DNA of 64,000 nt from Nitrosopumilus sp. (GTDB lineage Archaea > Thermoproteota > Nitrososphaeria > Nitrososphaerales > Nitrosopumilaceae). Each line of letters begins with the position of its first letter. Within the stretch, counting starts at the first letter, position 1. The stretch spans positions 192,001 to 256,000 of the forward strand of contig CBDBLX010000002.1 of the NCBI GenBank assembly GCA_965207445.1, in the 5' to 3' direction. Of the stretch, positions 33,001 to 36,000 are shown piece by piece. The position numbers are program-made.

Positions 33001-36000
33001 GCATTGGACATGTGTTCTAACTCATCTTGCAGTAGTTGTGAGAGATTTTTGTTCTTTGCTCGTATCTTTTCTAATCCAATCTTTTTGATGTATGCAAGTG
33101 ATGACTCGAGTCCAACTGCACCTACGTAGTTTCTAAAACCTGTCTGAAATTTACTTGGTGTATCTTTGAAATGCAATTCTTCTACATTATTATTATTATT
33201 ATTATTATCATCATTTTTTGATAATGTGGCAGACTCGCCTCCGATCATAACTGGACTCAACGCATCTTTTGCATCATCATTGCAGTAAAATATGCCGGTG
33301 CCCATCGGACCGCACAGCCACTTTGAGCCATTAAAAGACATGAAATCACATCCAATCTCAAATACACTACATGTGTGTGCATCTGTACACCCGATTGTCT
33401 GTGCAGCATCTACAAAAAAACTGCAATTATAATCACGTATTACATCATCTATTTTGGTTATTGGTATAATGGTACCTGTATTGTACAGAGCATGACTTAG
33501 TACGACTAGTCTGGTGCTTTGGTCCATGCTATTTCTTAACTCGTCTATATCAAAGAGACCTGTAGGGTCAATACTGAGGTTTTTAATCTGTATATTTTTT
33601 TTCTGTCTCTGATATAGCCATGGATAAAAATTTGCATGATGCTCGTGCTCCATACCTCTGATGATAATATTGCACCTTTCATGTAATGATTCTAGTCCGG
33701 TGGCAACCATGTTAATGCCATCTGTTGTACTCTGAGTCAAGGCTATTTCATTGGGTTTACAAGATATAATTTCAGAGATCATACTTCTGACATTTTGCAT
33801 TGTTTTTGTGACAAACTCATCTGCTTGCATTGAGTCTGGCCCAATCATGTTATATTTGAACAAAAAATCTGACATGGCTTTTATACTCGAATCTGGCATC
33901 AGTGAGACTGATGCATTGTTTAGGTAAATTTTGTTGTCTGCATATGAAAACTCTTCAAAATCATTTACTAGATTGTTGTGCTGTGGTTGTGGTTGTGGTT
34001 GTGGTGTTTTGGCATCGATACTCATTATTATATCTAGAATTACATATGATAATGATGGATAAAAACCATGACTGACAATAAAATGATATCATATACGCCA
34101 CAATCATTTATGAGTCAACTCACCGCACCAATCAGTATAATATTATGTACTGATGCTATCAAAAAGACACGTCTGTTTGGGATGCTGTCGGACTTGGCAC
34201 CAAATCGTGTGTTATACCTTGATACTGATATGTTGTATACTGGTTGTGTATATGCGGGACTTTACAAAAACAAAGATCACACAACCATTCATTGTCCTGA
34301 CCAAGATACATGGCACCGTACCGTCACTGACATCATACATCAAGCGTCTATTACAAAGACTGTTGTTATAATCGACTCACTAAATGGTGTCTATGAGTTG
34401 TTTGGCAAATCTGACTCTGCAATGTCTGCTAATACTCATATCATGTCAATTGCATCCCTTGCAAGACAAGCAGGTTCTTCTGTTATAGTGGGCGCAATGA
34501 TACGAAGAAAAAATAGCCGTAAAACAAGTAATAACACCTCCCACAATCATACCAATAATGACAAAGACACTCTCAAGGTATTTGAAGAGTACGTTTTGCA
34601 TCCTAGTGGACGTCAAATACCAAAAATAACACCACATCATACTTTATTCTTAGAGGGCACACGACTACATCCGTTGATTACAAATGTTCTTGTGTAATGC
34701 AATTAGTCGTGTATATAACACCGTTATAAAATGGCAAACGCCGTTATAGACCAATTATTTACAACAAGTCTTATTAGTAATGAATCGAGAATTAGAGTTA
34801 CAATGCCAGTAGGAATTATTCCAGACATTAGCGAACAGATGTGTATAGGCTGTGCACTATGTGTAGAGATCTGTACATCCCTCGGACCTGATGTACTAAG
34901 AGTAAAACCCGTTGAAGGCTGGAAGAGAGGCAAGGCTTTTGTCTTTTATCCAGAGAGATGTATTTCTGATGGTGCATGCATTGGTGTATGCCCAACAAAA
35001 GCAATCTTTTGGATGCGACCGATGGACTTTACTGTCGGGCAGCCAGTTCCACTCTACAAGAATTCAGTCTTTGAGAAAGGTTGGACAGAACTGATCGATT
35101 AAATCAGTTCTCTATATTTTTTCTTTTTCTTATAATTATTATTATTATTATTTGTGTAGTATGTACACTTTGATAACATTGTTTATCTAAACATTATTTT
35201 ACTTTTACATGTAACCGTTCAACCCTTTCGCAAATTTAGGCACAAATTCACCGCCTAACGTCTGGCGCAGGTACAGGGGTTGAACGGTTACCTTTTACAT
35301 GTATAATTATTTTCTGAGTTTAAATTTAGATGACCAACCTCTATTTTTTTTGTTACTATTGTCTGTAGAGTTTGATGATGATGATGGTTCGTGTTTGTCA
35401 TCTTCTACCTTGTCTGACTTTCGCATCTCGCCTACTGGCAGTCGCTGGAGCATCTCGTATGTTATGGTAAATCCTTTTCCGACCATTGTGGCATCTTTGG
35501 CATACTGTTCTTTGTTTGGTACCAAATCATCTGGCAAACTTCGTATACGTCTAGTCTTGAGATTAAAGAGGCGTATGACTTTGGAGTCCTCTAACTCTAC
35601 TTTGACATCTCCACTAAGCCCCTGTATGGAAAACTCTTCAAAGAATCTCATTGTACCGCCTTTTTTTAATTTGATTATACAATCATATGTGATCTTACCT
35701 CCATAAAACAATAATTCACGTGTTGATATTACTATATCTTCTTCTGCATTATATATGATTACTGTATCTGCGTTTAGTGATACTGTATTCTCAACATTTT
35801 CAACAATTATTTTTCCGTTTGGAGCTGAGATCTGCGTGCGTCGTTCACGAATTTTGTATACTCCTACTCTTCCTTCTATATCCTCTATTCTGTGCTTGCG
35901 GCCATACACATCTCCAATTACTACATTACCATTTTCAACTGTAAGGTGTGCTCCATTCTCTATCTTGTATTTATTCTCTAGTGGATCGACCATCTTAAAG

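Follow-up and report, generated by a model that had tools for sequence, protein, structure and literature searches.

M81 and M147, two families of short repeats in this genome, are real and active-looking MITEs. They are probably non-autonomous elements moved by single-ORF IS66 transposons, and the copies that lack a target duplication (TSD) would have arisen mostly by adjacent deletion. The evidence supports reading the absence of a TSD as the mark of a junction and not of decay. The window analysed here is C2:192001-256000, a stretch of 64,000 nucleotides. The genome consists of two contigs, C1 and C2; C1, 121 kb long, covers the start region of C2 as a second haplotype, mostly 97-99% identical to it, and both haplotypes are found at similar depth in the run contigs of one sample. 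About 27% of C2 is repeated. The genes present, among them one for a CFI-box-CTERM protein, suggest a Nitrosopumilus-type ammonia-oxidising archaeon.

Both families are short and dispersed, carry inverted ends of 11-17 bp in their consensus sequences (81 and 149 bp), contain no transposase and have a TSD in about 30% of copies. BLAST (176 hits) gave 144 near-full M81 copies on C2 and 2 on C1, while nhmmer (185 hits) gave 159 on C2; M147 (147-149 bp) has 88 copies on C2 (119 hits), in line with the 145 and 89 counted previously. The 110-bp family has 64 copies (72 hits) and, as had been reported, is nested in some M81 copies, namely in 2 clear and 2 one-sided cases among 66 examined. TSDs were counted in C2 copies with both ends intact, which leaves aside 40 M81 and about 20 M147 copies whose ends are damaged. 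The 9-bp TSD of M81 was exact in 22/125 copies and present with at most one mismatch in 33/125, an exact 8-bp TSD being found in 3; for the 8-bp TSD of M147 the counts were 13/69 and 19/69. In each set 0.4 or less was expected by chance. Under the working definition (9 bp with at most two mismatches, or 8 bp with at most one) a TSD was present in 40/125 M81 and 21/69 M147 copies, so that about 68-70% lack one, as the earlier claim of two thirds would predict. Mobility is seen in the M147 copy at C2:37787, which carries an 8-bp TSD and for which the corresponding C1 site is indeed empty; M81 showed no clean empty site. At C2:55893-56064 three M81 pieces are nested or in tandem, each within the end of another, with no counterpart in C1.

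The M81 copy under study and the other copies and neighbours in the window are as follows (window positions):

34731..35102, + strand, left neighbour, 123 aa, 4Fe-4S ferredoxin-like (labelled by eye from cysteine motifs)
35202..35210, + strand, left copy of the 9-bp target duplication, exact
35211..35291, + strand, M81 MITE under study, 81 bp, 96% to the family consensus, simple insertion
35292..35300, + strand, right copy of the 9-bp target duplication, exact
35307..36530, - strand, right neighbour, 407 aa, DnaJ-like N-terminus (labelled by eye)
4145..4225, - strand, M81 copy, 84% to consensus, no TSD
15233..15313, + strand, M81 copy, 90%, exact 9-bp TSD
27205..27282, - strand, degenerate M81 copy, 73%, no TSD
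32374..32458, - strand, M81 copy, 98%, no TSD, flanking genes adjacent in the reference genome G045
46983..47040, + strand, internally shortened M81 copy, 9-bp TSD
1201..1352, - strand, M147 copy, 91%, 8-bp TSD with one mismatch
28523..28670, - strand, M147 copy, 91%, no TSD, flanked on either side by repeat sequence
43801..43949, - strand, M147 copy, 85%, no TSD, another IS (ISb) being cut at its position 488 of 1409

The element at 35211..35291 has a perfect TSD, CTTTTACAT, and is a simple insertion. Its termini are the GTAACCGTTCA inverted ends, perfect over 11 bp and paired over 17 bp in the fold, which forms one hairpin through the ends (-34.4 kcal/mol, z -5.3). The only match of M81 in an Rfam search scored 26.9 bits, where the gathering score is 80, and M81 is thus not placed in a structured RNA family. 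The right neighbour is convergent, with its stop 15 bp from the element, and the same interval in G045 holds a 591-aa sensor-like gene. Elsewhere in the window there are a glutamine synthetase-like gene (40123-41601) and an RNA polymerase subunit or TFS-like gene (28837-29446), both labelled by eye, and long low-complexity acidic repeats at 48606-52929 (GAT/GAA runs and a 12-bp tandem array).

By tblastn the genome contains 31 IS66 loci of several types. IS66-A is 2.13 kb long with one 549-aa ORF containing PF03050, the frame being open in 4/5 copies, and it has a 9-bp TSD in 5/5 full copies; IS66-B (659 aa) and IS66-C have 8-bp TSDs. The parent ORFs (549, 659 and 544 aa) all score above the PF03050 cut-off, and the elements contain no second long ORF. 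The decayed IS66-D bears the exact M81 end, and IS66-B ends start with GTGTGAACC and have about 39 bp in common with M147. In both end and TSD length M81 thus matches IS66-A/D (9 bp) and M147 matches IS66-B (8 bp), a correspondence of sequence which supports the view that resident IS66 transposases would serve both families in trans. It had been objected that IS66 copies make 8-bp and most 81-bp copies 9-bp duplications; this objection is removed, since IS66-A, the nearest IS66, makes 9 bp. The similarity of M81 to its IS66 parent covers only about 16-28 bp of each end, and as the interiors of neither family can be aligned to the parents, “mobilised by IS66” is better shown than “derived from IS66”. 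The earlier description of both families as IS66-derived is therefore overstated: only ends are shared, and derivation by deletion is not demonstrable.

A third mini, of 70 bp and with IS66-B ends, is present in 10 copies (C2:878988-879057 and nine others) of 93-100% identity, 7/10 with an 8-bp TSD. In the IS66-B transposase (L396:163-2142) the N-terminal half includes a long stretch of tandem KKKDEEL units, with different lengths in different copies (659 vs 540 aa). IS66 relatives were found in 38/150 congeners, the larger genomes having many copies. The IS66-A transposase had no relative in the viral contigs searched, and ISH10 was the named IS66 among the top plasmid hits.

The earlier note had allowed that TSD loss may also be decay. 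Median identity to consensus (M81 88%, M147 85%) would leave room for this, yet the proportion of M81 copies with a TSD was flat from the youngest to the oldest identity class (11/31, 14/40, 11/43 and 4/11; Spearman P=0.18 by nearest neighbour). Since about 70% lack the TSD in every age class, decay is ruled out. Moreover, flank mismatches are bimodal, 20/31 copies at 95% identity or above have no TSD, and other repeats are cut at the exact end of the element. An assembly artefact is opposed by the finding of both C1 junctions in the run contigs, although these reach only 28-30 letters into the MITE side and all come from one sample. Simple decay or misassembly is refuted as the main cause, and we attach hardly any probability to it.

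The cut repeats point to deletion. A repeat ends at the MITE end in 31/85 M81 copies lacking a TSD, compared with 2/40 of those bearing one and 16/600 random points. A strict test, which dropped an exclusion list of 15 positions (composite ends and duplicated junctions) and required at least three paralogues, gave 21/81 against 1/36 (P=0.002). For M147 the contrast was not significant (22/48 vs 7/21; strict 11/38 vs 2/19). Where M81 bears a TSD, the interrupted repeat continues across the element, whereas at copies lacking one it is severed mid-sequence exactly at the MITE end, both ends being cut equally (19 and 19). The cut DNA, where identifiable, is chiefly other mobile DNA, and the lost part has a median of at least about 1.1 kb. 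Three copies each sit on a deletion (119, 453 and 525 bp) inside one repeat. For sizing deletions there is no close relative, the best of 150 congeners having 72% DNA identity. The strict test is silent for 60/81 TSD-less M81 copies, mostly with unique flanks, and deletion is therefore extrapolated to these.

M81 thus has the features of adjacent deletion: an endpoint exactly at the element end, a truncated flank and no reciprocal product. Inversion or reciprocal exchange between copies was rejected, since reciprocal flank swaps were not in excess (32 non-self pairs, about 9 of them being single or composite elements, vs 26 by chance); as the other half of a cut repeat is not found beside another copy, deletion is favoured over inversion. 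In TSD-less M147 the AT-rich target signature is kept on both flanks (P=0.0002; after exclusions 0.81 vs 0.76 under a one-flank model, P=0.04), so that both endpoints look like transposition targets. This signature fits adjacent deletion and recombination between two copies equally well.

It speaks against adjacent deletion as a full account that full IS66 copies mostly retain their TSD (IS66-A 5/5, IS66-C 2/3), as the 70-bp mini does. Since other element families also lose TSDs (5 of 17 ISa copies and 5 of 6 copies of its 153-bp mini), which the earlier note had not noticed, the loss is partly a property of the genome. ISa is an IS family of this genome, a 1.69-kb IS with GAGGTTG ends, and its 153-bp mini (C2:1806467-1806619 and 5 more) keeps a 9-bp TSD in 1/6. 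The notion that 81 bp is too short for an element to pair its own ends was dropped, because the 70-bp mini keeps its TSD in most copies.

Some TSD-less copies are the ends of composite units that presumably moved as transposons, a class that the earlier note had missed. In 3/85 TSD-less M81 and 8/48 TSD-less M147 copies the flank on the outer side is matched by that of an end which faces inward and lies within 20 kb (null means 0 and 0.5); this makes 11/133 in all, some of the units containing genes. Six units have an exact outer TSD:

C2:178385-181001, M147-cargo-M147 with inverted copies, 750-aa CFI-box protein
C2:840725-843455, composite
C2:2255053-2257328, composite
C2:413551-416440, composite
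C2:2220820-2236555, composite
C2:43250-46685, composite

A second M147-cargo-M147 unit has an uncharacterised 356-aa protein and a piece of IS66-C as cargo and a third an AAA_14/DUF4143 ATPase; in a further composite the cargo is a nucleotidyltransferase-HEPN pair, and one unit is 15.7 kb long. Since the flanking copies are only 68-84% alike, they were probably independent insertions that later moved together. The cargo has no second copy in the genome, and two of the units lie between genes that are adjacent in G045. The type I restriction cassette hsdR/hsdS is, as stated previously, bracketed by IS66-type ends in both haplotypes, and it has no outer TSD:

C1:100937-109107, restriction cassette, 8.2 kb
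C2:104095-107502, restriction cassette, 3.4 kb

Its hsdS, which is not the same in the two strains, includes a fused nucleotidyltransferase domain; C2 has no hsdR. The difference between C1 and C2 begins about 2 bp outside an M147 copy present in C1.

One junction concerns CRISPR-Cas. It had been claimed that in C1 a single M81 copy stands in place of a 20.8-kb CRISPR-Cas locus, and the copy at C1:79587-79667 does join the flanks found at C2:61076 and C2:81864. The joined flanks are thus upheld, but the left breakpoint at 61077 is in C2 already a GTAACCGTTCA end of another element, the remnant of an older element of 71 bp. The type I-G island (C2:61077-81863) comprises Csb1, Csb2, Cas3, the I-G Cas3-extension gene, 122 repeats and Cas4-Cas1; an IS66-A at C2:74679-76828 sits in a CRISPR repeat with a 9-bp TSD and splits the array. 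Since the flanks are adjacent in 11/11 relatives examined and Csb1 occurs in only 2/150 congeners, the island is a lineage-specific gain. It is nevertheless very likely that C1 lost it and not that C2 gained it late, because the elements resident in the island differ by 2-9% from their nearest kin, most exceeding the C1-C2 divergence of about 1.4%, and because in C1 the MITE still has non-ancestral DNA next to it (about 13 and 15 bp). No ectopic spacer scar was found in C1, and the single one in the shared stretch of C2 is C2-specific; it does not help to date the loss and would, at most, accord with the island having been gained late in C2. When 120 spacers were compared in search of matches to MITE or IS66, only 3 short partial hits lay outside the array.

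In the simplest path M81 would have inserted at 81864, after which the DNA between two like-oriented 11-bp ends would have been lost. As these two ends are direct repeats, end-directed repair or short-repeat recombination may have completed the loss; deletions between repeats under 20 bp are described for Haloquadratum in passages of PMC3119063. We rejected the idea that the C1 copy is the survivor of the copy inside the island, since the two differ at 11/81 positions and the C2 copy has an intact TSD. Two further differences between the haplotypes are a 15.5-kb C1-specific stretch (C1:1892-17365), where C2 is linearised, and a 614-bp C1-specific insert (C1:34006-34619) with a 9-bp duplication and no recognised ends.

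We therefore propose a model in which ISBst12-type transposons would move both families: IS66-A, or IS66-D as its decayed relative, would act on M81 (9-bp TSD) and IS66-B on M147 (8-bp TSD). Simple insertion with a TSD, the initial step, is directly seen. The ends of the inserted MITE would then remain substrates, and at the observed junctions the transposase may have linked one end to a nearby target, the intervening DNA being dropped. This would leave an intact MITE with unmatched flanks and could account for most TSD-less copies. The outer ends of two neighbouring elements may also pair, so that the DNA between them would move as a composite of the structure described above, and the far endpoint may occasionally be another IS66-type end, as in the loss of CRISPR-Cas from C1. 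The deletions kept by selection would be mostly ones in which mobile or accessory DNA is lost.

The flat age profile fits loss of the TSD at insertion better than slow accumulation, and this tells against adjacent deletion. It would suit a one-step, deletion-coupled insertion, in which the MITE enters a break, or is inserted between two target cuts that lie far apart, and the TSD is never formed; in addition, both ends behave alike, such a route has been proposed for IS5 and IS481 (in parts of PMC11708052), and excerpts of PMC3119063 describe deletion-coupled insertions in Haloquadratum, CRISPR-Cas loci included. However, all 14 IS150 deletion cases in the relevant sections of PMC11708052 were traced to an insertion followed by an adjacent deletion, the composites require elements that are already in place, and the single recent polymorphic M147 insertion (C2:37787) has a TSD. 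We thus consider the one-step route unlikely as the main source.

Homologous recombination between two direct copies, which would remove the DNA between them and leave one hybrid copy, seems a little less likely again. It accounts for two target-like flanks, it is demonstrated for full IS66 in Agrobacterium (sections of 10.1101/600809), and in M81 the left-right linkage is slightly weaker among TSD-less copies (0.044) than among TSD-bearing ones (0.065). There is nevertheless no shortage of direct neighbours (26 in direct and 17 in inverted orientation within 5 kb), the reciprocal swaps that inverted pairs should leave show no excess, and a permutation test for hybrids was negative (P=0.18 and 0.64). 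At the CRISPR site, moreover, C2 has no M81 at either breakpoint, and the internal C2 copy, with its own TSD, differs from the C1 copy as stated above. Adjacent deletion therefore remains our preferred explanation.

As regards mobile DNA and the CRISPR island the claim of deletion is upheld, but for conserved genes only weakly so. In an independent test synteny was compared with G045 only (1103 orthologues of 1803 ORFs), so that loss here and gain in G045 are not separable. A MITE copy was present in 12/55 short intervals lacking the reference gene and in 31/407 intact ones; after length matching 6.3 would be expected in place of 12 (P=0.008), an enrichment of about twofold. For TSD-less copies alone the figures were 7 and 3.2 (P=0.026). 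Five of the 12 intervals, that of the M81 under study among them, hold only TSD-bearing copies, and relaxed selection at emptied sites therefore explains part of the enrichment. Broken synteny was no commoner at TSD-less than at TSD-bearing copies (15/31 vs 10/25, P=0.6), and synteny breakpoints were not enriched (8/31 for TSD-less copies, 4/25 for TSD-bearing copies and 125/561 for neither). The description of these elements as gene-deletion scars is thus overstated: the twofold enrichment supports it only weakly, in view of the contribution of TSD-bearing copies, of the 43/55 gene-lacking intervals without any copy and of the similar rates of broken synteny.

BLAST with the M81 copy under study gave no match in 40 relatives. 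A pattern search, on the other hand, found M81 homologues with 9-bp TSDs in the congeners G097 and G147 (1-2 copies each; the G097 homologue is full-length, with 80% identity and a 9-bp TSD), and the negative searches of two relatives (G122 and G005) reported earlier can no longer be read as confining M81 to this genome. The M147 pattern was found in 0/150 congeners; other IS66-ended minis occur in G143 and G156. The 11-bp GTAACCGTTCA ends also surround unrelated interiors of 50-70 bp in 100 metagenome stretches, where 32 of the 80 minis examined had a TSD (30 of them 8 bp) and 48 had none. Minis with these ends are present in at least 104 species-genome stretches from Planctomycetota, Desulfobacterota, Gammaproteobacteria, Chloroflexota and others; 48 of 81 examined had a TSD and 33 did not, the proportion lacking one varying by genome from 2/17 to 9/10. 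One genome carries over 900 ends of this type. As to a parent of the bacterial minis, IS66 was found in 2/5 genomes, at 11 loci, none with matching ends; nor did any IS66 appear in 3 long stretches bounded by such ends in one genome or in 13 stretches of a second. Gammaproteobacterial minis (L274, L288, L306 and similar) contain a GC-rich hairpin, which we take to be REP-like and which is also found on many plasmids without the ends. A broader and rather doubtful reading is that the GTAACCGTTCA-ended minis of about 80 bp form an unrecognised IS66-driven MITE superfamily of bacteria and archaea, whose ends would act as portable sites of deletion and gene capture and which here could be the main pruner of mobile and accessory DNA, the builder of cargo transposons and the cause of the recent split into CRISPR-plus and CRISPR-minus strains.

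The transposition of IS66 has been little characterised. For this pathway the genome provides a natural test set: its single-gene transposases are intact, they have three cognate minis, and the products (insertions, deletions and composites) number in the hundreds. The same products bear on how TSD-less elements arise. They also suggest a concrete route for the loss of CRISPR-Cas in an archaeal population. A MITE finder for which a TSD is obligatory would overlook about two thirds of copies of this kind.

No IS66-dependent MITE was found in the literature searched; ISfinder, subscription papers and the supplementary MITE catalogue of PMC11602168 lay outside its scope and may hold them. The word IS66 is absent from the portions of main text available for PMC11602168 and PMC3852290, and for the GTAACCGTTCA end motif only unrelated papers were among the matches listed. 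A Nitrosopumilus genome is described as having the highest IS content of its phylum (excerpts of PMC13343696). As far as the sections consulted of each source go, M81 and M147 resemble the MITEs of Sulfolobus (PMC10969869; SM1-SM4, 25-44 copies), Haloquadratum (PMC3119063) and Cardinium (PMC9769881; MITECca01, 169 copies, IS982 parent), which are likewise short and non-coding, have ends and TSD length in common with a resident IS, and occur in many copies in a host-associated genome, between genes or within other mobile elements. Unlike these, they have an IS66 parent, most copies are TSD-less and stand at junctions, and the host is apparently an ammonia-oxidising-type archaeon. The parents are similar to the ISBst12 group of IS66, characterised in extracts of PMC12898284 by a single ORF, GTAA-type ends and an 8-bp repeat, in that they have one PF03050 ORF, GTAAC ends and, for IS66-B and IS66-C, an 8-bp TSD. 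They differ in that IS66-A and M81 make 9 bp, in the start of the IS66-B ends and in the three MITE families that depend on them.

TSD-less IS with an adjacent deletion made up 14/83 events in long-term E. coli lines, and the same partial text (PMC11708052) names adjacent deletion and recombination as causes of TSD loss and adds the one-step route; an intact element, no TSD and missing flanking DNA are seen there as here, whereas the present case involves a non-autonomous mini of 81 bp, about 68% of whose copies have no TSD. Acinetobacter and Enterobacter are known to have integrons flanked by MITEs (excerpts of PMC9771954), in which cargo between two MITEs similarly forms one unit; the present units are archaeal, with diverged flanking copies and with surface-protein, ATPase and nucleotidyltransferase-HEPN genes as cargo. 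Haloquadratum walsbyi likewise has deletions between direct repeats of <20 bp and strain-specific CRISPR-Cas loci at such sites (portions of PMC3119063), while the short repeat described here comes from transposon ends. Adjacent deletion and MITE-flanked transposons are therefore mechanisms already known; their combination is new here.
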